From assembly GCA_020137815.1 (NCBI GenBank), contig CM035359.1, positions 7,874,001 to 7,938,000 on the forward strand: a stretch of 64,000 bases of DNA, given 5' to 3'. Each line of letters opens with the position of its first letter. Within the stretch, counting starts at the first letter, position 1. Both the position numbers and the translations under genes were made by a program. Source of the DNA: Hormiphora californensis. Its lineage: Eukaryota; Animalia; Ctenophora. Below the pieces are notes generated by a model, which had not been told where the DNA came from, searched no databases, and was given only the letters and a program-made list of their open reading frames with translations. Below, one piece after another: positions 3,572-63,983 of the stretch.

Positions 3572-3683
3572 ATGTACTATGAGTTGTGTCGCTGTGAACC
3601 GAAGTTCAAACTCTCAATATTTTTCACTGAGCTGGCGAGCGCAAAGGTTACCATCCCCAAGCGCTGCGAGAAACGCAGTTATA

Positions 3684-5162
3684 CACGGTGTCCTGGAAGG
3701 AGGTTTTACCTCGCCTAGAGTAACCCGAGAAGTTACGGAGCCTACCCCACGTATTTTTTGACGTAGAATCCGAAAAACATAAAATTAAAATCCGGTCATG
3801 TGCCGTTTTTGCGTAAAACGGCAAAAACTGTTATTTTTAGCAATTTTCGACTTTTTCCGTATTTCAGAGGTTCTAGTAAATCCCCCTTAAAAGATACGGT
3901 CTTGAGAATTTTCACAAATAAAAAAAATCAATTTGCTACAGATTGGTCTTGGGTTTGTGTGATTTGGTCAAAAACTCTCGTTACTGTGGCCCCTTAAAGA
4001 TGTCTACTCTGCCAACACGTTTTTGGCTCCTGTGGCCACAGTTGTGGATCAAAATAAGAATTAGTATACACCAAAATTTGCGTCTTCTCAAGGCGAACAA
4101 CCTGGTTTTTACGAAATTTGATTTCATGCAGGCGTTCAAAAATTACAGCCGAAAAACTGGTACAGTAGATTTCGGAAATATCCCTACTTCAACAAACCCT
4201 AATCCAGGTAAGATTTCGGGAAAATACACATTTTCGTACATAAAAATGAAGCTCAGACAAATGCCAACGTGATGCAAAAAACGGGAAGTGTCTAACTTTT
4301 TTGTTTAGACGTTATAGCCAAAATAAAAGTGCTTATATTTGCCTTGAAAACACCCTCTAAAAGCCCTGAAAAACAGCAAATCTGTCTAAAATTGCAATAC
4401 GAATAAAATTTCACCTCTGGTGCACCAACCTAGCCCCCTGTGGACAAAATTTGTTTGAAATTGTCAGAATTTGTCTAAAAGTATGGTTTTTAAAGTGTAT
4501 TTTAAAGGCAAATATAAGCACTTTTATTTTGGCTATAACGTCTAAACGAAATAAGTTAGACACTTCCCGTTTTTTGCATCACATTTGTCTGAGCTTCATT
4601 TTCATGTACGACAATGTGTATTTTTCCGAAATCTTACCTGGATTAGGGTTTGTTGAAGTAGGGATATTTCCGAAATCCACTGTACCAGTTTTTCGGCTGT
4701 AATTTTTGAACGCCTGCATGAAATCAAATTTCGTAAAAACCAGGTTGTTTGCCTTGAGAAGACGCGAATTTTGGTGTATACTAATTCTTATTTTGGTCCA
4801 CAACTGTGGCGACAGGAGCCAAAAACGTGTTTGCAGAGTAGACATCTTTAAGGGGCCACAGTAACGAGAGTTTTCGACCAAATCACACAAACCCAAGACC
4901 AATCTGTAGCAAATTGATTATATTTTATTGGTGAAAATTCTCAAGACCGTATCTTTTAAGGGGGATTTCCTAGAACCTCTGAAATACGGAAAAAGTCGAA
5001 AATTGCTAAAAATAACAGTTTTTGCCGTTTTACGCAAAAACGGCACATGACCGGATTTTAATTTTATGTTTTTCGGATTCTACGTCAAAAAATACGTGGG
5101 GTAGGGTCCGTAACTTCTCGGGTTACTCTAGGCGAGGTAAAACCTCCTTCTAGGACACCGTG
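3684..5162. mobile_element. Foldback Tc1/mariner-type non-autonomous element with ~660-bp inverted arms
   Basis: TA|cacggtgtcc ... ggacaccgtg|TA. Arms ~3684-4345 and ~4497-5162 are near-perfect reverse complements, and the ORF track shows mirror-image ORFs. Confidence 0.85.
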
Positions 5163-5199
5163 TATACGTTTTATGGATGTTTTGGCTGAAACCCCAGAT

Positions 5200-5670
5200 T
5201 TCAGAAGGCTATTATAGCGTCGCTCTCTATTATCCGGGCTGAATTCAGTGTGAATCCGATATCAGGGTGCCTCTCCAGTACTGTCCACATACAGTAATCA
5301 TTAATCAAGCACAATAATAAACAGGTGACGTGTGGCGCTAGAATATCCCCTTGCAACACCCCGGACCTGACTACCTGAGCTCTTGTATTACTGTACATCC
5401 ACTGGATGTGGTCGATGATATTCCCTGGGATGCCATATGCCGGCTTATGGCATGAGGACTTTGATCATGCGCTTCCGGTTAATAGAATCGAAGGCGTTAA
5501 CAAAATCCAAGAAGGCTACTGCCAGTGGTAGTTGTTTGGTTATAGTAGCTCCTTCGATGAGTCTTCTAAGCGTGATGATGTGACTGACTGTGGACCGTTC
5601 CTCTCTAAAATCGTTCTAGGAATCGAGCAAAACAGTCTCGATGTAAGGCCCTATCCGGTGAAGATTCATG
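5200..5670 (-). pseudogene. Decayed non-LTR (RTE-like) reverse transcriptase fragment
   Basis: Translates to FREERSTVSHIITLRRLIEG...AFLDFVNAFDSINRK...MYSNTRAQV...GVLQGDILAP, with stops and frameshifts. Confidence 0.8.
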
Positions 5671-5689
5671 GCAATTTCTCATTTGCCGC

Positions 5690-6707
5690 ATACGGCGTCT
5701 AGACGGTGTCTAGACGGTATACCGTCTGGACGGGTTTCGGTGAAATCAGCTAAAAACGGTACCGAAATTGCTTGAGTCGGGTTATAGACGGTATCAGACG
5801 GTCTCTAGACGGGTTATAGACGGTATCAGACGGTGTTGCGACGGTATCAGACGGTCTCTAGACGGTGTCTAGACGGTACCGTCCCGGTGTCTAGACGGTG
5901 TCTGGACGGTGTCTAGACGGTATCCGTCCGAAGTTGAGACTGAAAATTGTACCAGACGTTGAGACGGACTTTTAGAACTCCGTCTGTATTTCAGACGGAG
6001 TTTTAAAAGTACGTCTCAACGCAGTCTAAAGGAAAATCGATGAAAGTACCGTCTAGACAACGTCTCAACTGAAACCGGTCAACATACCATCTAAACAACG
6101 TCTAGACAACGTCTAAACAGAATCTCGCGATTCAGTTTCAAATACCGTCTAGACAACTTCTCCAGCAATTTCGATACGAATACCGTCTAAACAACGTCTA
6201 GACAACGTCTTAAGCGAATTCGATACAGATACGGAGCAATTCTAATTGGTGATGAATGTGTGCCTTTTTGATAATGAAAATGATGTACAGTTGGACCTCG
6301 ATTTATTTGAAGTTGGGTACGAAAATTACCGGGAGGATAACCCCTTTCCCGTCCCCGAGCATCGCGGTACGACTGTGCTGGTTAAACACATATACATGTG
6401 TAATTTTCATTCAATAGGCACACATCTACCACTAATTCCAACTGGCATGGGTAATCCAGAATGGTCTTCGAAAACGGTCGAGTCTAGACATCATAATTAT
6501 TTGAGACGTTGTCTAGACGTTGTTTAGACGGTATTAGTATCGAAATTGATGGAGAAGTTGTCTAGACGGTATTTGAAACTGAATCGCGAGATTCTGTTTA
6601 GACGTTGTCTAGACGTTGTTTAGACGGTATGTTGACCGGTTTCAGTTGAGACGTTGTCTAGACGGTACTTTCATTGATTTTCCTTTAGACTGAAATACAG
6701 ACGGAGA
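5690..6707. mobile_element. DNA element with many GTCTAGACGG/GACGTTGTCTAGAC subrepeats and a ~190-bp internal inverted repeat
   Basis: About 6022-6210 is the reverse complement of about 6503-6692. Boundaries approximate. Confidence 0.7.
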
Positions 6708-6856
6708 GGTCCCACAAGCACCGCACTACCAAACTTGAGTTCCTCATTTGAAACCCCGTCCATTCCTGGACAAATTAATGACGTCAAAAATGAAATTTTC
6801 GTAATTTTGCGACCGGCTCTACTTCATCTACTTCATATACATCATACTATTATTAA

Positions 6857-7370
6857 GGGTACGCCGACCGAAATTTTTTTTCGAGTGCAGGGAAATCTCT
6901 CACCGTAGGGTTGTAGGCCATACCAAGGAGACCTCAAATATGCAATTTTAGCCCTTAAGTCGAATTCATATTTTTGCTACAGCTGTTTAAAAAATGTCCT
7001 GTAAATACGCTTTTGGCATCTCACAAATTTTTTTTAAAGATAGGAGCATGAAAATTTGGAAAATAGGGAAATCCTGTGTAACGTTTTATACCTTACAGTC
7101 CGTCATACACATTTCTATATGGAATTTTGTGCTCGTATTTTCTGTCAGAATCTGTATAACACGCACGTGAATTTGAGCCGCGGCGCGGCGCATCTGCACG
7201 TGCGGGTTTTCAAGAGAGAGTGAGAGACAAACGTACAACGTTAATGTGCGTCTCTCTCTTTAATCTCGCACGTGAATTTGAGCCGCGGCGCGGCGCATCT
7301 GCACGTGCGGTTCTTCCAGATATAAATTCCAAATAGAAATCCCAGATAGAAATTCCAAATAAAAATGTGT
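6857..7370 (+). mobile_element. Left end of a Kolobok-type element, same family as 24211
   Basis: TTAA|gggtacgc start shared with 24211 over ~200 bp. A 42-bp direct repeat lies at ~7165 and ~7268. Right boundary unclear. Confidence 0.55.
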
Positions 7371-7939
7371 ATGACGCCGTGTTATATGGCGTTTAGCACG
7401 TGCAGGTTTAGAGGTGGACTGTGGAGTACTATTGGAGTGGGGCCAGGGGTCGGAGCCGTTGCCAATGGCTGTAGCTACTATACTGCACGTGCACGTGCAT
7501 TTGATCTTGCTTTAGTTTGTGTCACTGCATTGTTCCAGCTAATATGCTCTCTTCAACAACTGTTGATATACGACAGCGACAATTGGAGTTATTCACGCAA
7601 GATCTCACCGCCATTCTCTACTTTTCCATACACCGAGGGCCGAGGGGTTTAAATGCAGCAACACCAAAAGAAGTGCAGAGAGAACGAACAAGACGTTAGA
7701 GGTTAAACAGAACCGATGATCAATCTCAGAGATTAAGGCAGATGAATACTGCAAACAGACGAAATAGTAAGTTCTTTTGTAACTTTGATCGCCTGATCAT
7801 CATCTGACGTTCTGAAACCAGAAACTCGCAGCGATCCCGCCTGAGCTCCTTCTACGGTACCGTAACTTAAGATGGGATAGTGCATGTCATTAGTTAGACT
7901 GATGATGTCAGTGTTCCCTAATCCAGCTACCAATACCAG

Positions 7940-15929: not shown

Positions 15930-16121
15930 GGTTCAAAACAGATTGATATTAACAAAACATGGCAAAATTAATCGTCACTCTAACACTATTGGTTTGTATT
16001 GACGTAGAATGAGTTTAAAAATATGTCCCCAGACAAAACAAATCGATAGCTTGTCCGCCACCTCATCATTTCAGTTTCTTACACCTCTCTGAAACCAAAA
16101 ATTGTTTGCACGTCCTCGACT

Positions 16122-16325
16122 ATGAATTTTCTACCGTTACTTTGCATCATTCTTACTGTGGTGGGACCAAGCTACGCCTACTACTATCCCATTTCGAGAC
16201 CAGTACAGTGTGGAATCGGCTTCGCCGCCAGATCTAGACTAGTGGGGGTGTACTCTCCTAGCAATGTATCACCCTGGAACCGCTATGGGTTTTGGAGTGT
16301 GGAGTATGGAAAAAATGTGGCAATG
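16122..16325 (+). CDS. Exon 1 of a predicted secreted protein (signal peptide MNFLPLLCIILTVVGPSYA)
   Basis: ATG, hydrophobic leader with an S-Y-A cleavage-like site, and phase-0 donor GTAAGC at 16326. An acceptor-like TTTCAG lies ~50 bp upstream. Confidence 0.75.
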
Positions 16326-16633
16326 GTAAGCTTTTTTTTCACTGTCCTTCCTAAGGGCACAGCTGTTACAGTAAACTCTCCCTCGTACATACAAGATGAA
16401 GATTCAAGTTAATTATATTTACTAACTGTTAGGGACCGAGAAGATTCAAATTTAGTATATAATTTACTCTCACACGCCTTTTTTTGTTGACTAATTTCGT
16501 CAAACAAAACTTTTATGGATTCAAAAAAGTATGATCTTTCCGGTGATATGCGGCTTCTTGCCGATAAGTGAGAGCAAGTGGGGGTTGTCACACGGTAATA
16601 CAACGCCGCGCATGAAAGGGGGGGTGACAACAA

Positions 16634-17919
16634 CAAGAATTATTATTGCATGATGTTTCATAATGCTGTGTTTCCCTGCCAACGAATACTCCAACCGATC
16701 ACTGCACAGTGGGTAACGACCCTACAAAGTGGGAAAAAAAGTTGTCTTTAAATTTGCTGAAATTTGGATATCGATTGTAAAAATAATCAAGGTTTCACGT
16801 AAAACAAACCGCATCGAAAAATATTGAGATTTACAGATTTTATGTTTAGTTTGAAGTTGAGGGAAATTGTGGGTTTTCATTTTGGCTGTGAAATTCGCTT
16901 AGATCCATGTGCACACTACTGCAATACCTTTCATTCTTTTTCTTTCATTTCTTTTGTATCGTGATGGTTGTTTTGTGTTCTTTTCAGTGATTAGGGTTCA
17001 ATATGTCTTACTCTAACTATTTTTTCTCGGTTGCGCGTGTCAAATTTAGGCTATTTTTAGGATATGAATGACCAAAAAAAGTTACTTCGCCGCTCGACGC
17101 CACCCCTTTCATTGTGATATTCTGACTCTATGGACAATTTGGAACATTGTAGTGTCGCGGGAATTCCCCACTTTTCCCCTGTTTGAATTTTATAGCCATT
17201 TAAAGTGCGAAATTTAAGCGATTTTTTTCGCTTTTTCGGCTTTTATGTGTAAAATGCCTGATCTAAAATGGCATATAACTCAAAAACGGTTTGATTTAGG
17301 CCATATGTTGCTTCATAAGTCCTATATAAACATGCACATTCCGGACAATTTGCATCAAAAATTGGATCTCTAAGTGGTTCCTGAGCCAAGTTACGTTTTT
17401 ACTTAATCAAGTTATTAATTAGCTAATTAATTTTCTTCAAATATTTCAAAAAGGTGGCATCTAAGCACTCTGAAAAGTGTCTAAATCGCTTTCTAGGCAC
17501 GGTTTTAGTCTAGGAGAGGTCACTTTGGCCCAAAAATATGATTTCTACGGCATATATTTCATTTTGTAGGGTCACACAGGAAAATTACCCACTGTGCACT
17601 GATAAACGATAGATCTGGTAAGCGCCGCTCACAGTCACACCAGACGATACCGTGCAATGTGATCTGATCGTCGTCCGCCAACGCCTAATTACAATGTTAT
17701 GTGAGACGAAGCTATGCATGGGAAACTTCTCACGTTCCCTCAGTCACCATACTAACGAGCTGAGCTTTCAAGGCCTTTTAGTTTCAATCAGATTTACCAA
17801 GAAGTTAAATCCATTCAAGCGCTACGGCGTTGTCCGTGACGGACGGACGGACGGACATTTAGTTAACTACACGATCTGCTGATTTCTAAAACATCATCCC
17901 TGCCCGGACAGGGAAAAAA
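16634..17919 (-). mobile_element. HINE/DINE-1-like Helentron derivative
   Basis: Minus strand: T-run, CCCTGTCCGGGCAGGG, (GTCC)n microsatellite, 3' sub-TIR GGCAGGGAAA, stem-loop GCATTATG..CATCATGC. No TSD. Confidence 0.8.
16705..17596. mobile_element. Non-autonomous Transib-type element with RSS-like asymmetric ends
   Basis: 5-bp TSD CACTG (16700-16704 and 17597-17601). Both ends begin CACAGTGGGTAA. The empty site is present in the paralogue near 22630. Confidence 0.85.
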
Positions 17920-18177
17920 TCCGACTTTTATTCAAGCTCTACAAAAAGTGGTAAGGGTCAATACATACCAGCGGCCGTTAAAATTCCTCTCCCCATTCTA
18001 AAACTAACAATCTCACGCGCGATTTTAACGGCGTGTTAAAATTTTGTCCAATTTTTATCCAATGCGACCGTCAAAATCGTGCGCGATTTGTTAGAAACGT
18101 GCTTTACATGGCGTGCACGTGAGTTCTTGCTAGCAACGGGGCGGGGCGGGGCGAGAATATGTTGCAATGGAGCCAAG

Positions 18178-19566
<1,389 letters not shown>

Positions 19567-22086: not shown

Positions 22087-22194
22087 TTGGTGTGAATAAT
22101 GAAACCAAACAGATTCTTGAGTATCATGATCAGGTGGAGCTATGGCCGTCTAATCCGATTTGAAGTTTGCGGAGTAAAATCCGCAAATCTGATT

Positions 22195-22720
22195 GCAAAA
22201 GGCGTTTAAAGCTCAGCACGTTAGTATGGTGCCTAACGGAACGTCACAACGTGAGAGGTTTCCCATGCATAGGCTCACATAACAGTGTGATTACTATAAG
22301 GCGTTGGCGGGCGATGATCAGATCATATCACATTGCACGGTATCATTACTGGTGTGGGCGGCGCTTGACGCTCCAGTTACAGATTTGGAACCGGGCGTCG
22401 GTTTTCTGATGGGAGATTCCTGATGTGAGATTCCTGATGGTAGATTCCCGATTGAACTATGCTGCGCGTCATAATTTACAATGCGCGACTAAATTTACAG
22501 CTAGAATGAATTGGGAGTTGAGCAGGATTCATTGTCAGCAGTGTCCAAAAATTCTTCCATCAGGAAACTGACGCCTGGTTCCAAATCTGTAACTGGTCCC
22601 TAACAGATCTCAATGAGATTTTCATAGCTATCAGTGATCGGTTCACTTTCAGGTATTTGTCGCGTCGGCAGGGTCTAGGGAAACACAGCATTATGAAACA
22701 AATTGCAATAATGATTTTTG
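22195..22720 (+). mobile_element. Decayed inverted paralogue of the 16634 HINE, interrupted by a MITE at ~22373-22600
   Basis: Matches the reverse complement of 17610-17780 and 16640-16704. MITE TIR ccagttacagatttggaacc. Confidence 0.7.
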
Positions 22721-22852
22721 TTTGACTTTATTGTCACCGCCACTTCTCGTGTGCTCGTTTTTGTGCACCTATCAACATTAACGTGAGTTTGGAGTGAGAA
22801 CTTCAAAAGAACCGACTTAATTATCTTTTATCTACATTTAATCCCCCTTCAG

Positions 22853-24210: not shown

Positions 24211-27096
24211 GGGTACGCTAACCAAAATTTTTTTTCGAGTGCAGGGCAATCTCTCACCGTAGGGTTGTAGGCCATGCCAAGGAGACTCCAATATGCAATT
24301 TGAGCTCTCAAGTCGAATTCATATTTTGCTACAGCTGCTTGAAAAATGAACTGAAAATGAGTTTTTGGCATCTCAAAAATACATTTGTAAAGATAGGATC
24401 ATAAAAATTTGTGGATTTGAAGAGGACAAAGAGGTGAGTAGCACAAAAAATTTTTTGAAATCGGAGCTGATTTCCGGTCCTGAGGTGGATTTCTTTTTTT
24501 GACTTTAACGCCATATTTGGCCAAGTTCCGCAAATACGTGGAAACTGTAAATTGGTCAAAAGTTGCGTCTAACGATTCTCTATATGGCCATAAATTTTGG
24601 GCGCGTCCTTATTTGAGGTGTGTCGTACAGATCGAAAAGTGTAAGGCTCGTTTTTATTGAAAATTAGCATTTTTTGTGTAACAGTTTTTTGACGTCTCAA
24701 AAATACATTTTTTAGAGATAGGAGCATGAAAATTTGGGATTTGGAGAGGACATGGAGGTGAACAGCCGCAAAAAATTTTATTTAAATCCTACTGATTTCC
24801 GGTCCTGATATATTGATAATTTTCACTGTTTTTACACCCCATAAAATGCATATAGGTACTTCGTTAGTGATGAAAATTTGTCAAAGTTCCGTCATACCCT
24901 TGCCTACGTACTGCACAAATATTGCGTTACTCTCAAACGATGTACCCTACAGAGCTAGATTTGTGTACAAGTGTTCTGGGAAATCTGTATAAAAACCAAT
25001 GATTCGTGTGTCGTATAACAAAATAGAAAATACTCAAATTACAAACAAAACCAAAAACAATTCAAAAATTTCCACATCAATTCGATATAATTTTTCCTAC
25101 ACATGGTCGATATACACTTGTCGTTTCACTAGCAGGTAATATAAATCTGCCTGTCTGTGGAACATATTATCTATCATTATCATCAAATCTTTAATCTCGA
25201 CTGCAGCGGCAAGTTATATCAGTTGTAGCTTCACCGTTTCCTATCGTATGGATAGTGTACTGGATCTAAGGTCAGCAATGTAGACTATGCATACAGTGAA
25301 GCCAAGCAACAAAATAAAGTTCCTATAAATTGTAATTGGGGGTGTGGCCCCGCGAAGCTATGCCAAAATTTGTAGATGATATAAAAATTTAAATTTGGTA
25401 CTTCTAGGAAATGCATATAATATGTCTACCGATCTGTCACCTGATACTTTGAGCACATTGTTTTTTAAAGCTCTTGAAGAATCGTTAGGAGGCTGTACAT
25501 GTTTTCGTTGTGCTTTTCTATGTCATTTGGTGATCGGTTGGACTGTAAAGCAGATGATCTTGTTGAACTGGTTCTTAGTACCGGTGTAGGTGGTCGAAAG
25601 TTCGCTGCCGCAATGAACTCAGCTAACTGTGCAAGTCTGTGAAAACTGTGGAAATGTGCGGATACCCGGCGCTGTAGACGGAAAGAATCGTATTTTGACT
25701 ACAAGTTGCTTGGTGAGTTGGTATATGATATGAAGTGTTTCCGGGAAATGGAGAAATAAATGACTTCATGGAACTGCAGAGCCAATGAGAGGAAGATGAA
25801 GATGAAGATAAAGATGAAGATGAAAATGAATGAAGATGAAGATGAAGATGAAGATGAAATTTTTTTCTATCTGCAGACGAGGCTGAAGATGAAGATGAGG
25901 TTATGTCCATCATATCGGCAGTGACAGAGTTGTCCGTGGAGGATCTGTATGAGGAAAAACCATCAACCTCCAATGAACCGCAAACTGAAGTATCTTCGAC
26001 ACCGACGGAATTTTTGTCATGGATGTAAACTTCTTTTTAAGGTTTAGATGCACATGTGAGAGGCTTCAGGTTCGACGATGTTAGAGTCACTGTGAATCAT
26101 CTGTGGGGCATCATCGCTGCATCGTGTAAAAAGTGTGGACGGTCAACCAAGATGACCACTATGTCGAACACTTCTGACACCGTCAAAAGATACTGCGCCG
26201 CTGTTGACGCGGTTGGGACAACAGTGGATTCAGCGCGTAATCTGTTCCTTGCAAATGTATTAGGTAATGTCAATGGCCACAACCTTCATGACGCCCTAGG
26301 TGACTGTCATGCTCTTGCTGAAATAGTTAAAAAAGATGCTTACATGGATACATTTATAAGGAACATTGAATCTTTCGAGTCTCTGAGGGTAAGAAACAAA
26401 CCCTCTTCTAAAGGCAGGTTTAGTGACGCAGGCTATAGCCAATAAAATGACTGAAGTTTGTAACTTGCGAGGAATATTTGCATCTAACTGAAGACGCAGC
26501 AGCACTTTGGCTGAAATCCCTTGGTGCAACAGCCAGGCAGATTACCACCGCTTAGTGAAACGACAAGTGTATATCGACCATGTGTAGGAAAAATTATATC
26601 GAATTGATGTGGAAATTTTTGAATTGTTTTTGTTTTGTTTGTAATTTGAGTATTTTCTATTTGTTATACAGCCACAAGAATCATTGGTTTTTATACAGAT
26701 TTCCCAGAACACCTTGTTACACAAATCTAGCTCTGTAGGGTACAATCGTTTAAGTTAACGCTATATTTTGTCAGTACGTAGGCAAGGGTATGACGGAACT
26801 TTTGACAAATTTTCATCACTAACGAAGTACCTATATGCATTTTTATGGGGGTGTAAAACAGTGAAAATTACAATATATCAGGACGGAAATCAGCTAGGAT
26901 TTAAATAAAAATTTTTTGCGGCTGTTCACCTCCATGTCCTCTCCAAATCCCCAAATTTTCATGCTCCATCTCTAAAAATGTATTTTTGAGACGTCAAAAA
27001 CTGTACACAAAAAATGCTAATTTTCAATAAAACGAGCCTTACACTTTTCGATCTGTACGCACACCCTCAATAAGGACGCGCCCAAAATTTATGGCC
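24211..27096. mobile_element. Kolobok-type element with long inverted arms (right end lost) and an internal exonuclease relic
   Basis: TTAA|GGG start. About 24585-25131 is inverted at about 26553-27096. Confidence 0.65.
26056..26445 (+). pseudogene. DEDDh-type 3'-5' exonuclease C-terminal relic
   Basis: NLHDALGDCHALAEIV matches the ExoIII H-x-A-x-x-D motif. The N-terminal motifs are not seen. Confidence 0.5.
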
Positions 27097-28575: not shown

Positions 28576-29368
28576 TAGTAGAGTCGATAACTACATCGAC
28601 CTCTCCCAATTGTTCCAGTTTTTGTCACATCTGTTTGGAGCCTCGACACGACCTCTAAACAGGTGTTACTTTTTCACAAACTGTTTTTATCTTGGTGTAA
28701 TCAGCAGTTGAAATGTTGCTAATCATAACAAAAACCTGACTAAATTTTTTCAACTTGGGGTAAAACCATGGGTGTCAAAAGTTAGCTCTAGGTCCCCTGA
28801 GTAACCATCCGGAGACTCTAAGAGATATTTCAAGCCGTTCTCCCGTAATCATTAATCCCGGTGGAGAAACAAATACAATGCGGACGTACGTGAGCGCTGG
28901 CAGGCTGTTTACATGTTATTGTATGTCTCTCACTCTCTCTGGAAAAACTGCACGTGCGGTTGCGCCGCGCGAGATAACTCTTTCTCAAGGGGGAGAAAAG
29001 AGAGAGACGCACATTAACGTTATACATTAAAGTTGAGGTTGTAGGCAATTGCACGTACGTCCATACTCAAATATGTGCTCTACCGGGATTAATGATTACA
29101 GGAGAACGGCTTGAAATATCTCTTAGAGTCTCCGGATGGTTACTCAGGGGACCTAGAGCTAACTTTTGACACCCATGGTTTTACCCCAAGTTGAAAAAAT
29201 TTAGTCAGGTTTTTGTTATGATTAGCAACATTTCAACTGCTGATTACACCAAGATGAAAACAGTTTGTGAAAAAGTAACACCTGTTTAGAGGTCGTGTCG
29301 AGGCTCCAAACAGATGTGACAAAAACTGGAACAATTGGGAGAGGTCGATGTAGTTATCGACTCTACTA
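28576..29368. mobile_element. Academ-like foldback element
   Basis: TGG|TAGTAGAGTCG ... CGACTCTACTA|TGG. Near-perfect arms of ~290 bp. Confidence 0.75.
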
Positions 29369-30862: not shown

Positions 30863-33670
30863 CTTGGTACGGTCTCCTCAATCATTCGAGTGGCCGGCTC
30901 CAAGTATCCTCGCTCGTAATGACGTGAGCTGTCTCCACTCATTTCTGTTCTCTGCAGTGTTAGTAATTGCACGGAGAGACTGGGATTGACCCGTAGCGTC
31001 TCGATAATCATTCAGCACACAGGAGGACCAGGTTTTACGCGGTCTTCCTCTGGAACGTCTCCCATGACTAGGCACCCAGTGGTAGAGTTTGTTGGGCACC
31101 CTACCCTCAGGCATTCTAATCAGGTGTCCAAACCAGCGGAGTCTCCCATTGCCAATGAACTTCGAGATTGGTTCTATCCCCGCCCTCTCCAGTACCTCCC
31201 TGTTAGATACTCTCCTAAACCACTGTATTCTCAGGATTCTACGCAGGCACCGTTGGTGGAACGCCTCCACCCGGCGATCTTGGACCTGAGTAGTTGTCCA
31301 GGCCTCACAACCATAGAGAAGAACTGTCAGAACAGCAGCTCTGTATATCCTGATCTTGGTACAGGTCCTGATGTTACGGTTGTACCAGATCCTACAAAGC
31401 ATACTGAATGCACTGTAAGCCTTCCCTATCCTGATACCAAGCTCCTTGTCGATGGTACCGTCAGAGGACAACGCCGATCCGAGATAGGTAAAACTGGAAA
31501 CCTGCTCAACCGGATTACCCTCCACAGAGATGCTGACCGTATCCGCCTCTGAAAATGGGCGCTGGCTAAGACCCTTTGAAAAAGCCACAACTTTGGTCTT
31601 CTTCGCATTAATCTTCAGACCAGCGTACCCTGCGTATTTTACCAGCAAATCTGTTGACTCCTGGAGCCCTTCCTCAGTATCATCCATTACAGCCATGTCA
31701 TCAGCATAGTCGAGATCCATGATCCATTCCCCACCCTCATCACTCTCAGCGCCGTGAAGAGTGAGACCCCTGGAGACAGTCTTGTTGGACTCAGCAAGCT
31801 GAGCCGCCCAGTTAATCACGATGTTGAAGACTGGTGGACCCTGAATGTCGCCCTGACCGGTACCACTGAGGACACTGAACCAGCTGGAGAGCTCCCCGTC
31901 ATGTTTCACTGCACTCATAGTACCGTCAAAGAATGCTCGAATTATCCGGACATACTTCTCTGGAAGACCATAATGGCGGAATGCGGCCCAGATAAAATCC
32001 CTGTTAATACAATCGAATGCTGATTTGAAGTCAATAAAGTTTATATACAACGGTACATTATATTCTATACACTGATGGATGATGGTACGGAGGGAATAAA
32101 TCTGATCCACACAGGACCGGTTACGTCTGAATCCACACTGATTCTCTCGAAGTGCCAATTCAAGACCAGAAGACAACCTGTTCAGCATAATTATCTGGAA
32201 CAGCTTGGAAGTGGTAGATCGCAGAGTGATGCCCCTATTATTTGAGCACACACTGGCGTCACCCTTCTTGGGAATCACCGAGATGACACCCTTTAACCAC
32301 TCCTCCGGGACCTTCTCCTCCCTCCAGACTCCACCAAACAGATCCACAAGGGGGCCAACAAGACCGGACGAGCCATACCGTAGCTGTTCGTTCGAGATCC
32401 CATCAACGCCAGGACTCTTATGGTTTTTGAGCCTCTTCAGTGCCACTAAAACTTCTCCACGAGAAGGCGGAGGATCATCCTCACCAAGATCCTCAAAGCA
32501 CGGGTCCACTTCCAGACCATCCAGATCCGAGAGCTGTGATGTAGTTACAGGGGGGTTTAGCAGCTCAGAGAAGTGCTCCGCCCAGCGCTCCCGCTGTTGA
32601 ACAGGATCAGCGATGAGTTCACCGTTCCTATCACGAACAGCAGTACCGCCGCGTTTCCTCACACCTGACAGATCTTTCATATGCTGCCAAAGTTCCCTCT
32701 GCCGCCCGTGCACCGCAGCATCCTCCAGATCAGACGCCAAACTATCCGCCCACCTTTCATCGTCCACCCGTGCTGCTTTCTTGACCAGCTTATTAAGCCT
32801 AGAGTACTCAGATCCACCCTCGGGATCATTCTTCTTCAGCTCAGCACGTTGGGCGATGAGGTCTCGAGTCTCCAGAGACAAGTGCTGCTGACGAATCCGT
32901 TTCGGCCGCGCTCCCAGGACCTCCAGTGACACCTCACCGATTACCTCCTTAAGTTGCCGCCACTGACCCTCCAGACTTTCCTCAGGCTCCAGAGATTCAA
33001 ACCTGTTCCGGAGAGAGACATTATATTCCGTGCGTGTCTCATCACACCCCTTCCTGAGATTCTCTATAGCTGGAACCTCCCTGACCGGTTTCCTACAGTT
33101 CTTAGCTGCACTCAGCCGGATCCTAACCTTACCCCGAACCAGGTAGTGATCAGACCCGATGTCTGCACTCCTTAGGACCCTAACATCCAACAGAGAACTT
33201 CGCCACTTGTTGCCGACACACAGGTGGTCTATCTGCGTCACAGTGGTACCGTCAGGAGATCTCCAGGTTCCCTTGTGGTGATCCTTATGAGGGAACATCT
33301 TCCCACCAATAGACAACTGATGAATCCCACACAAATCCTCCAACCGCTCACCGTTGTCATTAGAAACTTGGTGGAGAGAGTGCCCGCCACCAACCCTCGC
33401 GTTGAAATCCCCGCCCAAGAAGACCACGTCCTGCCGAGGAAGCCTATCCAAAACCGATGATAACTGGTTGTAGAACTCCTCCTTGACCGCGTCATCCTTA
33501 TCATTGGTTGGAGCATATGCAATAACAAGGGAGATATTAACATGTTTGGTGTGCAGTCGGGCTGCCATGATGCGCTCAGAGAAGGGACTGTAGGAAATTA
33601 AGGACTTCTTGACAGATTTTGATAACACCAACCCAACACCTTGCCGCCTCAAACCATCTGCCCTGCCAGA
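30863..33670 (-). mobile_element. 5'-truncated RTE-clade LINE
   Basis: Inserted in the 21-bp array with a possible GATA duplication. Very short 3' UTR ending CAAG(TA). Confidence 0.9.
30878..33652 (-). CDS. RTE LINE polyprotein: partial AP endonuclease plus reverse transcriptase (uninterrupted 924 aa)
   Basis: Motifs YAPT, GDFNARVG, QIDH, SDH (APE) and FIDFKSAFD, QGD, YADD, FTYLGS (RT). N-terminus truncated. Confidence 0.95.
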   Translation of the reverse strand: MRRQGVGLVLSKSVKKSLISYSPFSERIMAARLHTKHVNISLVIAYAPTNDKDDAVKEEFYNQLSSVLDRLPRQDVVFLGGDFNARVGGGHSLHQVSNDNGERLEDLCGIHQLSIGGKMFPHKDHHKGTWRSPDGTTVTQIDHLCVGNKWRSSLLDVRVLRSADIGSDHYLVRGKVRIRLSAAKNCRKPVREVPAIENLRKGCDETRTEYNVSLRNRFESLEPEESLEGQWRQLKEVIGEVSLEVLGARPKRIRQQHLSLETRDLIAQRAELKKNDPEGGSEYSRLNKLVKKAARVDDERWADSLASDLEDAAVHGRQRELWQHMKDLSGVRKRGGTAVRDRNGELIADPVQQRERWAEHFSELLNPPVTTSQLSDLDGLEVDPCFEDLGEDDPPPSRGEVLVALKRLKNHKSPGVDGISNEQLRYGSSGLVGPLVDLFGGVWREEKVPEEWLKGVISVIPKKGDASVCSNNRGITLRSTTSKLFQIIMLNRLSSGLELALRENQCGFRRNRSCVDQIYSLRTIIHQCIEYNVPLYINFIDFKSAFDCINRDFIWAAFRHYGLPEKYVRIIRAFFDGTMSAVKHDGELSSWFSVLSGTGQGDIQGPPVFNIVINWAAQLAESNKTVSRGLTLHGAESDEGGEWIMDLDYADDMAVMDDTEEGLQESTDLLVKYAGYAGLKINAKKTKVVAFSKGLSQRPFSEADTVSISVEGNPVEQVSSFTYLGSALSSDGTIDKELGIRIGKAYSAFSMLCRIWYNRNIRTCTKIRIYRAAVLTVLLYGCEAWTTTQVQDRRVEAFHQRCLRRILRIQWFRRVSNREVLERAGIEPISKFIGNGRLRWFGHLIRMPEGRVPNKLYHWVPSHGRRSRGRPRKTWSSCVLNDYRDATGQSQSLRAITNTAENRNEWRQLTSLRARILGAGHSND

Positions 33671-35909
33671 GATAACTCGGATAAATGTCCGGATAACTCG
33701 GATAAGGGTCTGGATAACTCGGATAAGGGTCCGAATAACTCGGATAAGGGTCCGGATAACTCGGATAAGGGTCCGGATAACTCGGATAAGGGTCCGGATA
33801 ACTCGGATAAATGTCCGGATAACTCGGATAAGGGTCTGGATAACTCGGATAAGGGTCCGGATAACTCGGATAAGGGTCCGGATAACTCGGATAAGGGTCC
33901 GGATAACTCGGATAAGGGTCCGGATAACTCGGATAAATGTCCGGATAACTCGGATAAGGGTCCGGATAACTCGGATAAATGTCCGGATAACTCGGATAAA
34001 TGTCCGGATAACTCGAATTTGAGCTCGAATAACTCAAACCTGGCTACATTTAGGTCATTTTTGGGTTATCCAAATCAATTCTTGTTATGTTCTAACTGCA
34101 GAGTGCATGAAAAGAGGGTCGAGCAAGGCAACTCCATTCTAAGCTATTTCTTTATCATTTAGGTCAGCTATAGACCATTTCTGGGTTATTTCTATGTTGG
34201 TTTGTCCAATTTTTGTGCGTTTCTGAAACATTCAGGTCAATTCAAGATACTTCAAGGTCTCAAAAGGCTGAAAGGCCCCCCTCCTCCCACAGAAAATGAA
34301 ATCGAAGTGCCGAAAAGAGCCTATTGAGACATTAAAGTAGATATTGAATTGACCTGAATGTTTCAGAAACGCACAAAAATTGGACAAACCAACATAGAAA
34401 TAACCCAGAAATTGTCTATAGCTGACCTAAATGATAAAGAAATAGCTTAGAATGGATTTGCCTTGCTCGACCCTCTTTCCGTGCACTCTGCAGTTAGAAC
34501 ATAACAAGAATTGATTTGGATAGCCCAAAAATGACCTAAATATAGCCAGGTTTGAGTTATTCGAGCTCAAATTCGTGTTATCCGGACATTTATCCGAGTT
34601 ATCCGGACATTTATCCGAATTATCCGGACATTTATCCGAGTTATCCGGACCCTTATCCGAGTTATCCGGACCCTTATCCGAGTTATCCGGACATTTATCC
34701 GAGTTATCCGGACCCTTATCCGAGTTATCCGGACCCTTATCCGAGTTATCCGGACCCTTATCCGAGTTATCCGGACATTTATCCGAGTTATCCGGACCCT
34801 TATCCGAGTTATCCGGACATTTATCCGAGTTATCCGGACATTTATCCGAGTTATCCGGACCCTTATCCGAGTTATCCGGACATTTATCCGAGTTATCCGG
34901 ACCCTTATCCGAGTTATCCGGACATTTATCCGACTTATCCGGACCCTTATCCGAGTTATCCGGACCCTTATCCGAGTTATCCAAGTTATCCGGATACTTA
35001 TCCGAGATATCCGAGTTATCCGGATTTCAGTATCCGAGTAATCCGGAGTCCCATATCCGAGCTTGGTTATCCGGATATCTCGAAAACATCAATTATCCGG
35101 ACTATCCGGACTATCCGGGTTATCCGGGTTTATACATACCCCCTATTGAAAAAAGCTAAATTATTCAAACCAAAAACAGTGTTGTAGAGACGTGGCTGGT
35201 ACCTTTGAAAAATTTTCTTTTTTTGCAAAATTTTACAGAACGATTGTCAATGCTTTGATCGGTGCTCCCCAAAAATTTTGAGAGAAGAAGTTATTTTGAA
35301 ATTTTGATACTATTTCACAGTCGCCTTTGGGTATCGATTTCCTTTCAAACGCGACTAATTTTAGCTCAATTGGACCACCACAAGAGACAAAGTGGCTAGT
35401 TTTCTAACCCTATGTCTGGTCATGCGACCCCCATTGAGACGCTACTGTCATTACGAAGTGCCAATGCCCAATAAGCAGGTGTAACGGTCGAGTATCACGT
35501 ATCACATCTGCTAATGAGGACGGTGTACCGATACAGCGTCCGTTAGAATGTATGTTCTCTTGCTAACACGCCATAATTTAATGGGGATCACATGACCCAA
35601 CCTAGGCTTGGTAAACTGGTCACTGTGATTCTAGTGGTGATCCAATTAAGCTCAAACTGGTCGCACTCGAAAGAAAATTGATAGCCAAAACAATTTGTGA
35701 AACTTTGGTACCAAAATATGGTCCCGTTTTTTGTTCATTCAATGTTCATTCAGGCGAAAAAAATGAACTTTAATCCAGATGGCTGAAACTCCGGATTCCT
35801 CGAATGAGTAGTGAGTACCCATACAAATATTGTGTCAAAATATCAGAGTGATCGAAGTTAAGATTTGGGAGATATGAGGCTCGGCGTACCATGACTTTTT
35901 TTGGCCCAG

Positions 35910-36367
35910 GTAGTTGTTCAGATATTTGAGGTTAACATATCTCCCAAAAAACAACCTTTTGTTGGATAACTTTAGGTCCACAATTTCATTTTATGTGCCA
36001 CTTCCTGAGAAGATGGCTGGGACCTGGGACTTGAAACTTGGCAGTTATGATCCTGAGATGGTGAACTAAAAATCTGATGTAGCTATTTTTGATTTAGGCC
36101 CTAGTTCCTGAAATATTGAGGTTTATATTTCAAAAAGCATGTTTTTTTTAATGTTAACCTCAATATTTCAGGAACTAGGGCCTAAATCAAAAATCGCTAC
36201 ATCACTTTTTTAGTTTACTATCTCAGGATCATAACTGCCAAGTTTCAAGGCCCAGACCCTAGCCGTCTTCTCAGGAAGTGGCACATAAAGTGGAAAAAAT
36301 GTTTTGAAATGTTCACCAAACGGTTGTTTTTTGGGAGATATGTTAACCTCAAATATCTGAACAACTA
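35910..36367. repeat. Palindromic TE-derived segment
   Basis: About 35910-36125 is inverted at about 36152-36367. Confidence 0.75.
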
Positions 36368-49092: not shown

Positions 49093-52000
49093 CTTCTTCT
49101 TCTTCTTCTTCGTAGAGGCTGTCTCAGCCCCGTGAGGGGCTGAGATGAAGGGATGTAGCACAATGGTTACGTTCCCCAGCCTTGAGGTACCCCGACCAGA
49201 AATTCTAGATTCCTGGGGTGTACTTCTTGGAGTCGTGGTGTTTTCTACCTAGAGGACGGGTGAGGGTCCTCGGGGTGTAGTAGTTTCTCCGCCCTTCGGT
49301 AAAACGTGACGGTTTTTTGGAAGGGCAGGTGGTGTCTTATGTCGTCCAAAGTCACGCACAGCTTATCGAATACTTCTTGTCGAAGTTTCCACAGTAGTGG
49401 GCATTCTGTGAGTACGTGTTTGACAGTTTCGTCCTCCATCCCACACAGGTTGCAGGTTGTGGTTTTGACTTTTTTCAGTTTTTTCATATGGTAGTTTAGA
49501 TTGCCATGTCCCGTGAGAAGGTGCGTGGCAGCTCTTAGATTACTTCTAGTCATGTTTTTCAGAGATTTCCCAAATCGGTCAGCCCATATCATATCCATGT
49601 GGTTTGATATTTTCCTGTTACCGGTTTTAATCTTGTTCCTTAGGGCTGCGTATGCTGCAGCTTTGGGGATTGGGATTAGGGTTTCTTCTGAAGTATTTTG
49701 AGCACCCTTTTTGGCCAGAGCGTCAGCAAGTTCGTTCCCGTGATGCCCTTGGTGGGCTGGGATCCATCTTACTGTGACGTTGTTCCAAATTGATAGGGTG
49801 TTGAGGTTTGATATTGTTTTCAGAGTGGTTTTTGACCTGGACGTGGTGGTGTCTAGGCTTTTTATGGTACCCTGGCTGTCGCAGTTTATTAGGACCCGCT
49901 CATTTGCAGTTCCACTGTCCAGCAGGGTTTGTGTTGCTTGTTGTATGGCAAACATTTCTGAGGCTGGCACTGATATGTGCGGGCCTAGGTTAAATGACTT
50001 TTGGGTTGTTTCTTCTCCATCTTTCCAGATGGTGAGTCCAGCTCCCGCATTGTCGTTTATTTTAGATCCATCCGTGTATATAACAGTGGTAAACTCACTT
50101 TCCACCTCCTTGTAACTCCCCCTGTCCGGGATCTCCGTTAGGAAATCCCTGTCTAGGGAAAGCACAGGGGTGGTTAGATCGTGTGTCCACTCAGACGGTA
50201 AGGTTCTTAGTGTTTTGTTCACAGTGTTGGCGTGGGATGTGAACTTCTTGGGGTTTTTCAGGTCTGATTTTACTGGGCCTTCCCACTGCCCAGTGGCCAT
50301 CAGAGTGTATGCTGTTTTCACCGCACAGAATCTAAGATGTTCTGTTATTGGTGTCGTGTTTGTAATCTTGTCCAATGCTGACGCTGGGGTCGTGGGGAGG
50401 GCCCCCGTAACCATCTTAAGCGCCATTCTTTGGAGTTTGATCATATTGTCTTGGTTGGTTTTTGTAAGCATGGCGTTTGCCCATACCATTGCTCCATAGG
50501 AAAGAGCTGGTCGGACTATTGTTGTGTATATCCAGGATGCGGTCTTTGGGTTAAGTCCCCACGTGGGGCCTACAACTCTTCTACACTGCATTAGGATGTT
50601 TTTGCATTTCTTTATTTGTTTCACTATGTGCTCGTTCCAATTCAACTTGCTGTCTAGGGTAAGACCAAGGAATTTGGTGGAGCTCACGGTGTTTATGGAG
50701 TTTCCCCCGATTTTGATCGGGTCATTGATTTTAACGTTTTGCCGATGGGTGAAGATAACAATATGGGACTTTAGAGCACTAAGCTTAAGTCCCACTGTCT
50801 TGCACCACTTATTGATTGCCGTCAAGCCCTTTTGAGTAGCGTCCCTTAGTGGAAGAATATCCACCGAGGGGCCTGCCTTGGAGGGGGGCATTGTTGTTGT
50901 TACCAGGAGACTTAGGTCATCGGCGAATCCCTGTAGGTCACCTGGTATTTCCTTTTTACTGTGGTTGAGAAGATCATCCATGACTAGGTTCCATAAGAAT
51001 GGAGAGAGTATGCCGCCTTGGGGGCACCCTCTCGTTACCATGATCGTTAATGATTCTCCCAGCAGTTTTGTTGTTACCTTTCGGTTGGTGATTGTGAACA
51101 TTATCCAGTCAACTGTCCGTTTATCACGGAGTTTGGCGTGGAGTGCTCTTTCGATAGCTTTAAAGGCAACGTTGTCGAACGCTCCCTCGATGTCGAGGAA
51201 AGTGCCCAACGCTATGCCTTGGTTCATTAGGGTCTTCTCAATTTTCCTTACTACTTTGTGGAGGGCTGTCTCGGTAGAGACCCCCCTCTTAAAGCCGTAT
51301 TGGGATTTATTGAGTTTTTTGTGGACTTTTTGATCCGCTTCGATGTGCCATAGCACCAACCTTTCAGCAAGTTTCTGGAGGTTGGATGCCAGGGTTATCG
51401 TTCGGAATGATTTTGGCTGGCGGTAATCTCCTTTCCCTGGTTTGGGTAGGTAGATTGCTTCCGCTTCCTGCCATAGTGTTGGAGTTTTTCCTAGTTCATA
51501 AGATGCTGTTACGATTTTTGCGAAGTATTTCGCAAAAGTATCGGCTATTTTCTGCATCATTATTGGCCTTATGCTATCCGGGCCCGCTGCAGTTAGGGGC
51601 CTGAATTCGCGTAGGGCTTTAATGATGCGTGTTGTTGAGAATGTTCTTTCATTAGACCATTTCCCGCGACCGATCTTATCATAGTCTTGGGTTGATGGTC
51701 TTGTGATGTTGTGGTCTCCAAAGTGGACGTCTGCCATTGCTAGCAATGTTTCCTTCGGAGAGCTTGTTATGTTGCCGTTTTTGTCGTTTACACAGTTCAG
51801 TTTACAACCTTCACTGGTTTTAATGACATGGCTTATTTTTTGTGCATCAGAGAAGGCGTCGAGTTCTTCCGTCCATGCTTTCCAGCATTTTCTCTTGGAA
51901 TATACTCGTATCTTGCTGTGGCTGTTTCTAGCAGCTCTGGCAAGGGCCCAGTCTTTTTGCATTTTGGTGTCTTGAGCTATCTCTAGTTTATCTAGCATTT

Positions 52001-61909: not shown

Positions 61910-61931
61910 AAGAGAGAGAAGATAGAGAGAG

Positions 61932-62005
<74 letters not shown>

Positions 62006-62065
62006 GAGAGAGAGAGGAGCGGGACAGACAGAGAGGGAGAGAGAGAGAGAGAGAGAGAGAGGAGT

Positions 62066-62118
<53 letters not shown>
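61340..62118. repeat. Degenerate (GA)n tract
   Basis: Direct read. Confidence 0.95.
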
Positions 62119-62122
<4 letters not shown>

Positions 62123-62129
62123 GACCCGA

Positions 62130-63983
62130 GTGGAGGAAAGGTGGTCAAAGACAACCTACCCTTCCAAGACTGATGACCAGCTTAGATCCCAACTGAGATC
62201 TATAACTCAGTCGGGACTCCTTTCACCACAGAAGCTGATGGAAATCAGAACAGCGGCCGTAGCCGACCGTGAAGCAACTGAATCGGCACGACAGGCTGTG
62301 GTAGAGGACAACCCACCCCCAGAAACTATTGAACCCCCCACAAACCCAGTGGAAGAGGAAGAGGAAGAGGAAGGGCCATCACCGAACCCTGAAATCGTGG
62401 AGCAGTTCAAGAAACTACTCGAGGAACCAAGCTCCATCAAAGTCACCGACTTGAGGCATGTCCCCTGGGGGAAGCTACGAGTGGCAATTGACCGACTCAG
62501 CCCGGTAATCAAGTCCTTTGAAACTCCAGACCTTACCACACTGAACACGCTACTGATGGCCGTAGCCCATGTGGTCCGAGAACAGATGGGCGTGAAGGCA
62601 CCAAGCGAACCCACCAACATCACCCCCAGAAGGAATAAACAACCTATGTGGCTGCGACGACTCGAAGAGAGTGTCGCCAAGCTTCGCTCAGACCTCTCCA
62701 GGCTGACCGAAATGAGCAGAGGTGCCACCCACAAGTTCCAAACTATAGATATTATCTATAGAAGATACCCGCTGCTGCCCAAGAAGGGCTATAAACAAGT
62801 TATAGAAGAAGTGAAGCAGAGACTGCTAGCGAAGGCCGGAAAGATTAAGAGATACAAAAAGAAGCAGCAGACATTCGTTGACAACAACCTGTTCCAGAAC
62901 AACCAACGAAACTTTTACCGGAAACTGGAGAAACGTGGATCGGACCCCACGCCACTCGATTGTACTCCAGAAGACCAGAACAGGACGCTTAACTTCTGGA
63001 AAAATATCTGGGAAAACGAGGCTGGTCATAACACTGAAGCAGAATGGTTTGACGGAGTCCAGGAGAACTTTGAAACAGTCAGCCAACAGGAAGAGTTTCA
63101 GATCACCACGGAAAGAGTTGCAGCCCGGGTGAAAGGAATGACCAACTGGTCAACCCCAGGTATAGATGGTCTCCACGCCTTCTGGATTAAACACACGACT
63201 TGCCTCCATGGTCGGATAGCTGAGCTACTCAATGACAGTCTCATTACGAGTCAAGTCCCGGCATGGATGACTGAAGGCAGGACCTTCCTCCTGATTAAAG
63301 ACCCCAAGAAGGGTATGTCAAACCCGGGGAACTTTAGACCCATAACCTGCCTTCCGAACCTCTGGAAGCTGTATACAGGAATATTATCAGAGGACATCTA
63401 CCAGCACCTCGATGTAAACGGGCTCTTTCCGGAAGAGCAGAAGGGGTGCCGCAAAAAGAGTCGAGGATGTAAAGAACAACTAGCAATTGACAAACTTATC
63501 CTACGTCATTGCAAACGCTCAAAGTCTTCCTTGTATATGGCTTTCATAGACTACCAGAAGGCATACGACTCGATCCCCCACTCCTGGATCCTTAAGTCAA
63601 TGGAGATGTGCGGGATAAACCCTCAGATAATCCGACTATTCGAGTCATCATTCCAGCAGTGTATTGTCAACATCGTCCAATCTGGGTCAGACTTAGGTAA
63701 AATACACATCAAGAGAGGCCTCTTCCAAGGAGACTCCGTCTCCCCTATTCACTTTATTATAGGCCTGATCCCCCTGTCCATGCTCCTAGCTGCCCAAGGA
63801 AGAGGCTACACCATATCTAACCCAGTAGCTCCAGATCCAGATATTAGTATCAACCACCGCCTATACATGGACGATCTTAAGCTGTATGCCAGCTCGAAAG
63901 AGGACCTTCAGCAGCTCTTAGCAGTCACTGAGAAGTTTAGCACTGACATCAACATGTCCTTTGGTCTATCCAAGTGCGGATAG
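62130..63983 (+). CDS. R4/NeSL-like (RLE-type) non-LTR retrotransposon ORF, incomplete at both ends
   Basis: Motifs PMWLRRLE, LFQNNQRNFY, NWSTPGIDG, FRPITCL, EQKGC, IDYQKAYDSIPHSWI, GLFQGDS, YMDD, FGLSKC, then a premature stop. No APE domain. Confidence 0.88.
   Translation: MEERWSKTTYPSKTDDQLRSQLRSITQSGLLSPQKLMEIRTAAVADREATESARQAVVEDNPPPETIEPPTNPVEEEEEEEGPSPNPEIVEQFKKLLEEPSSIKVTDLRHVPWGKLRVAIDRLSPVIKSFETPDLTTLNTLLMAVAHVVREQMGVKAPSEPTNITPRRNKQPMWLRRLEESVAKLRSDLSRLTEMSRGATHKFQTIDIIYRRYPLLPKKGYKQVIEEVKQRLLAKAGKIKRYKKKQQTFVDNNLFQNNQRNFYRKLEKRGSDPTPLDCTPEDQNRTLNFWKNIWENEAGHNTEAEWFDGVQENFETVSQQEEFQITTERVAARVKGMTNWSTPGIDGLHAFWIKHTTCLHGRIAELLNDSLITSQVPAWMTEGRTFLLIKDPKKGMSNPGNFRPITCLPNLWKLYTGILSEDIYQHLDVNGLFPEEQKGCRKKSRGCKEQLAIDKLILRHCKRSKSSLYMAFIDYQKAYDSIPHSWILKSMEMCGINPQIIRLFESSFQQCIVNIVQSGSDLGKIHIKRGLFQGDSVSPIHFIIGLIPLSMLLAAQGRGYTISNPVAPDPDISINHRLYMDDLKLYASSKEDLQQLLAVTEKFSTDINMSFGLSKCG

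Follow-up and report, generated by a model that had tools for sequence, protein, structure and literature searches.

A small mobile element in the window examined here, a stretch of 64,000 nt, bears on the question of whether the 12/23 rule dates back to the ancestral transposase with its single gene or arrived only with RAG2. RAG1 alone loses the 12/23 rule (PMC4840297), yet models hold that the first RAG-like (RAGL) transposons inherited their asymmetric ends from Transib (PMC9435367; PMC10629977). The initial annotation of this locus described a Transib-type element with ends that mimic a pair of recombination signal sequences (RSSs), and drew from it a RAG1-like transposase with a 12/23-like rule in what may be an early-branching animal.

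The element is 892 bp long (16705-17596, 35% GC) and non-autonomous. We assigned it to the minus strand by analogy, because in published ctenophore Transibs the transposase gene has the long end on its 5' side and the short end on its 3' side. Its termini form a perfect 12-bp inverted repeat that starts with the RSS heptamer CACAGTG, at 16705-16716 on the plus strand (short end) and at 17585-17596 on the minus strand (long end); positions 8-10 of the ends read GGT. An 11-bp inner box, GACCCTACAAA, begins at 16718 on the plus strand (16718-16728, 1 nt past the 12-mer) and again at 17573 on the minus strand (17563-17573, 11 nt past the 12-mer), and is absent elsewhere in the window. The displacement of the box between the two ends is therefore 10 bp, as had been annotated. 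Written out, the left end reads CACAGTG, 12 nt and ACAAAGTGG on the plus strand, and the right end reads CACAGTG, 22 nt and ACAAAATGA on the minus strand; these are the very letters given in the initial annotation, and the spacers between the heptamer and the leading A of ACAAA (12 and 22 nt) fall within 12/23 ± 1. Behind the short-end box, GGG and an A-run (16731-16740, plus strand) stand in the same place as in the 3' end of the published element PbaTransib_0868 (compared by eye). The interior (16741-17558) is non-coding, with a longest stop-free stretch of 61 codons, and the region 16000-18300 gave no Rfam match; the part at ∼17292-17335 is common to a far more abundant repeat. A perfect inverted repeat of at least 12 bp that starts with CAC and is accompanied by a 5-bp direct repeat (ends 80-6000 bp apart, a criterion chosen after the element was seen) was found once in the window and in none of 300 dinucleotide shuffles. 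When the same test was relaxed to 10 bp, the 300 shuffles yielded 3 matches. The window contains no further CAC-ended element with a target-site duplication (TSD) of 5 bp.

The TSD is CACTG, present on the left at 16700-16704 and on the right at 17597-17601 (both plus strand) and single at empty sites, which confirms the 5-bp TSD for this copy. One such site had been noticed near 22630, and the host repeat indeed has a diverged paralogue in which the target 5-mer stands once, at 22632-22636 (minus strand), with homology on both sides (16632-16677 at 89% and 17636-17795 at 76%). Counting the 5-mer, the exact letters extend 12 positions leftwards and 8 rightwards when matched exactly. Empty sites were also detected in public contigs: those of runs X2, X5, and X13 part from the reference after 16704 and run on into right-flank letters, and X7 contigs make the same left-flank to right-flank passage as a joint. 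The host repeat itself (about 16540-16704 and 17597-17800, with the paralogue at 22185-22722) is very abundant, with summed contig depths of up to 10^5, and the paralogue bears its own inverted-repeat insert at 22373-22596.

Other copies of the element were surveyed in contigs from 4 of the 16 runs with sequence matches (X2, X5, X7, and X13), the runs of small share (X8-X12 and X14-X16) lying outside the survey. Sampled words were present at 71-76% in six runs of organism A and at ∼10% in runs of organism B. At the left end, where 32 of 2472 pieces were listed, 16705 is reached by three of the contigs in the list, two of them from organism B and the other from organism A, and each of the three shows 1-2 gap letters across 189-342 bp. 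With so few gap letters in each, none of the three can carry a left spacer that is 10 bp longer. The organism B left-end copies differ from the window element at about 9-11% of letters, and the X2 left-end contig begins exactly at 16705. The right-end survey comprised 59 contigs, with 32 pieces listed and a complete indel table. The long end (17563-17596) is gap-free in 9 of the 11 covering contigs among those listed, one partly covering contig being left out of the count, and the gap-free contigs include all four from organism B as well as relatives with 11 and 18 differences. The offset is thus no private indel of one copy among symmetric relatives, the case that the initial annotation had named as fatal to its reading: it is kept in organism B and in diverged relatives, and it recurs at 10 bp in three published ctenophore families for which both ends are printed.

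Two kinds of deviation were observed at the long end. In the remaining two of the 11 contigs (from X2 and X5), part of the box is repeated by an insertion of 7 nt, which brings the spacer to 29 nt. Their differences are identical in X2 and X5, they look like one older locus, and nothing shows movement of this variant after the insertion arose. The relative with 18 differences has two substitutions in the box, one of them at the first A of ACAAA, and the same flank in both samples. Unlike flanks begin at 17597-17604 in all four runs, which indicates several insertion sites; a single flank is visible per contig for these other copies, so that the 5-bp TSD is seen for the window copy alone. A 507-bp X5 contig, in which a 95-letter left side ending at 16799 is joined to a gap-free right end and which appears to enclose another interior between the two ends, likely represents a second small family. 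In X2 the depth is ∼330 inside the element and ∼60 on unique flank; depth is no copy number, and these values hint at a handful of near-identical copies. The family of the element is likely young.

The published ctenophore Transibs supply the closest comparison. Tao et al. (2022; PMC9435367) described six ctenophore Transib proteins and defined a Subgroup I, whose members all combine asymmetric ends with a CTT1 tail and an equivalent of the nonamer-binding domain (NBD); the alpha11-12 region is a further feature of the Subgroup I transposases. We compared the ends of the window element with the supplementary sequences of that paper, by eye except for the subterminal motif. In PbaTransib_0868 from Pleurobrachia bachei the terminal 12 nt match the element's letter for letter at both ends, the gap before the inner box is likewise 1 versus 11 nt, and a 5-bp TSD is present; the 3' ends of both PbaTransib_0868 and PbaTransib_8175 are identical to the first 15 nt of the element's short end. 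A motif printed near the 3' end of PbaTransib_8175 has a single match in the window, the subterminal motif at 16806-16823 (minus strand, 17/18 identical), and none in 100 shuffles. There are also differences: PbaTransib_0868 and _8175 hold a predicted transposase (within ∼3.6 kb in PbaTransib_0868), whereas the window element is gene-less at 892 bp, the inner box of PbaTransib_0868 has ∼6 of 11 letters in common with ours (by eye), and ACAAA stands in the box of the window element only, not in the printed boxes of PbaTransib_0868 and _8175. Because the inner box differs, we regard the element's family as distinct from PbaTransib_0868, and it probably has its own transposase.

MleTransib_2823 and MleTransib_3931 from Mnemiopsis leidyi (PMC9435367) have ends that start with CACAGTGGG and a box common to both ends that lies 10 bp deeper at the 5' end (by eye), but other box and spacer letters, and a transposase gene is present. 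As printed, the boxes of the published families differ from that of the element, and the box of MleTransib_2823 also differs from the other published ones, each being near-identical at the two ends of its own family. The four families represent two or more genera; within each of them the two ends carry like boxes, most families differ from one another in the box, and the offset is always 10 bp. This constancy with differing boxes suggests that the offset reflects a real geometric constraint. The end plan itself had already been published for the ctenophore lineage in 2022, and the family of the element differs from it in the letters of the box. Its exact family was not found in the literature, where the terminal 12-mer led to unrelated papers only (Repbase lay outside the search). 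The box motifs gave no match in the supplement of Tao et al., a weak absence, as DNA is printed there in blocks of ten and a known motif was also missed.

Taken together, the ends, the TSD, the empty sites, the sharp boundaries of the copies, the spacing, and the published relatives agree, and we concluded that this gene-less, multi-locus DNA transposon is very probably a family of ctenophore Subgroup I Transibs. CAC heptamer-like inverted ends, a 5-bp TSD, and dispersed copies with sharp boundaries are features of Transibs; asymmetric bipartite ends and an end sequence related to published ctenophore members are those of Subgroup I. Absent from this copy are the RAGL features, namely RAG1L and RAG2L genes between the ends and AAA at positions 8-10. 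The Transib-type label of the initial annotation is upheld by the CACAGTG ends, the 12-bp inverted repeat, the 5-bp TSD, and the sequence ties to the published ctenophore Transibs.

A source of the transposase was sought in the window and in other genomes. No RAG1 or Transib Pfam match was found in 149 of the 202 filtered open reading frames of the window; the same scan returned three reverse transcriptases and faint sub-threshold matches only, and the 53 filtered frames outside the scan are mostly antisense to LINE frames or located in repeats. The two-block end pattern was found neither in viral contigs nor in prokaryote genomes. Metagenome contigs gave one match, in contig L001, which we dismissed as a coincidence: it falls within a bacterial primase-like frame of 870 codons, its gap is 6 nt long, and it lacks a second end, and the contig bears no other likeness to the element or the window. 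The frame in question (4782-7394, minus strand) is presumably, by its motifs, a primase/helicase of the satellite-phage type beside an AlpA-like regulator.

Other mobile and coding sequences surround the element. A LINE at 49245-53369 (minus strand) has an intact-looking frame of 1374 codons with endonuclease, reverse transcriptase, and RNase H domains. The best named matches of its reverse transcriptase region are from Mnemiopsis leidyi (53-56%), and 313 of 321 residues (98%) of the protein are identical to a Pleurobrachia bachei proteome entry in the nearest cluster. By this near-identity, the basis of which is a mobile-element protein, the host is likely a ctenophore of the Pleurobrachia group, in agreement with the early-branching animal host that had been proposed. 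A second LINE frame with endonuclease and reverse transcriptase is located at 30878-34033 (minus strand); a 21-bp tandem repeat lies on both sides of it and again, inverted, at about 34554-35127. The third reverse transcriptase frame (61926-63983, plus strand, 685 codons), near the window end, is of another lineage by its look. Long fold-back stretches of up to 1.5 kb with 86-92% identity occur at 3680-5166, 28576-29368, 33671-34918, and 35911-36367, and the genome seems rich in palindromic elements. A 120-codon frame at 16050-16412 (plus strand), with a signal-peptide-like start and no Pfam match, ends ∼290 bp before the element and is possibly an exon of a secreted protein. A frame of 134 codons at 26041-26445 (plus strand) is likewise without a Pfam match; its end motif resembles those of DEDDh exonucleases, and it is possibly a mobile-element remnant.

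The reading of the inner box as an RSS nonamer, also part of the initial annotation, was not supported. At the short end, the candidate nonamer (16724-16732), which is opened at 16724 by the last five letters of the box, matches ACAAAAACC at 5 of 9 positions and fails at position 6. The long-end candidate (17567-17559, minus strand) matches at 6 of 9 and has A at both positions 5 and 6, the key positions of the RSS nonamer (Kapitonov and Jurka, 2005; PMC1131882). Within the element, at least 5/9 is reached within three neighbouring offsets at 17.5% of positions, and 6/9 at 6.1%. The two ends are moreover not independent tests of nonamer likeness, the letters ACAAA being common to both, and the short end also scores 6/9 at a spacer of 22 via its A-run. 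In the same register PbaTransib_0868 reaches 3/9 (by eye). ACAAA as a conserved nonamer was therefore rejected: the match is weak and near chance, and the box differs in the published relatives, where it is not nonamer-like. The case for asymmetric ends accordingly depends on the shared box rather than on any resemblance to a nonamer, and ACAAA itself is most plausibly the form that a variable box takes in this particular family.

Our explanation of the locus as a whole, to which we give a probability of roughly 0.85, is a non-autonomous Subgroup I family that is moved in trans by an enzyme reading the terminal block and the inner box. Transib and RAG-like enzymes cleave by nicking and hairpin formation at CAC and insert with a 5-bp duplication (PMC10629977). 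A RAG1-core-like transposase encoded elsewhere would act in trans on the element, and would likely read the terminal 12-15 bp plus the inner box of each end. Its catalytic core and C-terminal tail would grip the terminal block, and a dimeric equivalent of the NBD would bind both inner boxes and accommodate the difference of one helical turn by tilting, in the manner of the RAG1 NBD (PMC10629977). A short and a long end would then, as a consequence of this tilt, be the favoured pair. The pattern of boxes and offsets makes it probable that the inner box is bound and that its phase is under selection. A preference for the short-long pair would have slightly less than an even chance, and a strict RAG-like 12/23 rule would be improbable.

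Three other accounts were weighed against this one. An enzyme of the same family might need the terminal 12-16 bp only, in which case the boxes and their offset would be inherited but weakly used and any pair of ends would serve equally. Such an account fits the proposal that the RAGL enzymes of invertebrates depend on the terminal 15-17 bp and respond rather little to asymmetry (Martin et al., 2020; PMC7204232), the cleavage by lancelet ProtoRAG in vitro, which is barely affected by deletion of the inner element (PMC8289069), and the indifference of RAG1 alone to the 12/23 rule (PMC4840297); loci with a 29-nt spacer or an altered box also exist. The exact 10-bp offset, however, is found in the element and in three published families from two genera, with the box changed at both ends together, and drift alone would hardly keep the offset. 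The two deviant loci are diverged, apparently have the same flank in S1 as in S2 (two samples), and are possibly old copies that no longer move. We consider dependence on the terminal block alone possible but doubtful.

The opposite extreme would take the ends as true equivalents of 12- and 23-spaced RSSs, with a real nonamer and a cognate enzyme that cuts the short-long pair only. It accords with a heptamer that is perfect on either side, with the placing of ACAAA exactly 12 and 22 nt away, with the spacing kept in a second species, and with the NBD equivalent reported for Subgroup I transposases (PMC9435367). It has little chance of being right, since 5/9 is near chance in an AT-rich element, the short end fails at position 6, PbaTransib_0868 reaches only 3/9 in this register (by eye), the first A of ACAAA is altered at a diverged locus, and the strict rule in vertebrates needs RAG2 (PMC4840297). 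A third account would derive the element from a two-gene RAGL transposon (RAG1L plus RAG2L) and not from a Transib. CAC ends, 5-bp TSDs, and gene-less derivatives occur among RAGL transposons too, at times together with an asymmetry of 10 bp (PMC7204232; PMC10629977), but in its terminal and subterminal letters the element agrees with Transibs from the same group of ctenophores, it reads GGT at positions 8-10 in place of the AAA of the protostome RAGL consensus (Martin et al., 2020; PMC7204232), and the ctenophore entries encountered in Tao et al. are all Transibs (PMC9435367). An origin from RAGL is thus very improbable, and the Subgroup I family moved by an enzyme that reads both the terminal block and the inner box is the reading we retain.

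The literature searched contained no functional test of a Subgroup I Transib. The family described here is an apparently young example from two species that exchanged its inner box and kept the offset of 10 bp, and its ends happen to lie close to real RSSs, which makes them a convenient substrate; the published Pleurobrachia and Mnemiopsis elements, which have genes, already permit the same experiment. The boldest claim would be that a recently mobile ctenophore Transib is served by a RAG2-less transposase that reads the ACAAA box via its NBD, cuts only a short and a long end together, and accepts RSSs in exchange for its own ends. We think this decidedly unlikely. If true, a working 12/23-type rule would have existed without RAG2 in a very early animal lineage.

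RAG1 without RAG2 has no strong 12/23 preference, and Hztransib without RAG2 handles the 23RSS poorly (PMC4840297). ProtoRAG prefers unlike ends, like-end pairs lowering recombination moderately only (PMC8289069). The ends of PflRAGL-A from Ptychodera flava and the vertebrate 12/23 RSSs are similar to those of the element in the heptamer, the conserved adjoining letters, the 10-bp spacer asymmetry, and the 5-bp TSDs (Martin et al., 2023; PMC10629977). Among insects, RSS12/RSS23-like ends were reported for five families of Transib, along with 5-bp TSDs (Kapitonov and Jurka, 2005; PMC1131882), and a later hypothesis was built on these insect ends (Yakovenko et al., 2021; PMC8355894). The novelty of RSS-like ends as such is low, 12/23-like Transib ends having been published in 2005 and asymmetric ctenophore Transib ends in 2022. 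The insect elements Transib5, Transib2_AG, and TransibN1-N3_AG resemble ours in the heptamer-like terminus, the bipartite ends about one helical turn apart, the 5-bp TSDs, and the existence of non-autonomous families, and CACTG fits the target CASTG reported for TransibN1_AG (PMC1131882). They differ in that their short end is the 5' end and their A-rich nonamer is conserved across families (PMC1131882), whereas in the ctenophore Transib group the short end is the 3' end and the box is family-specific.
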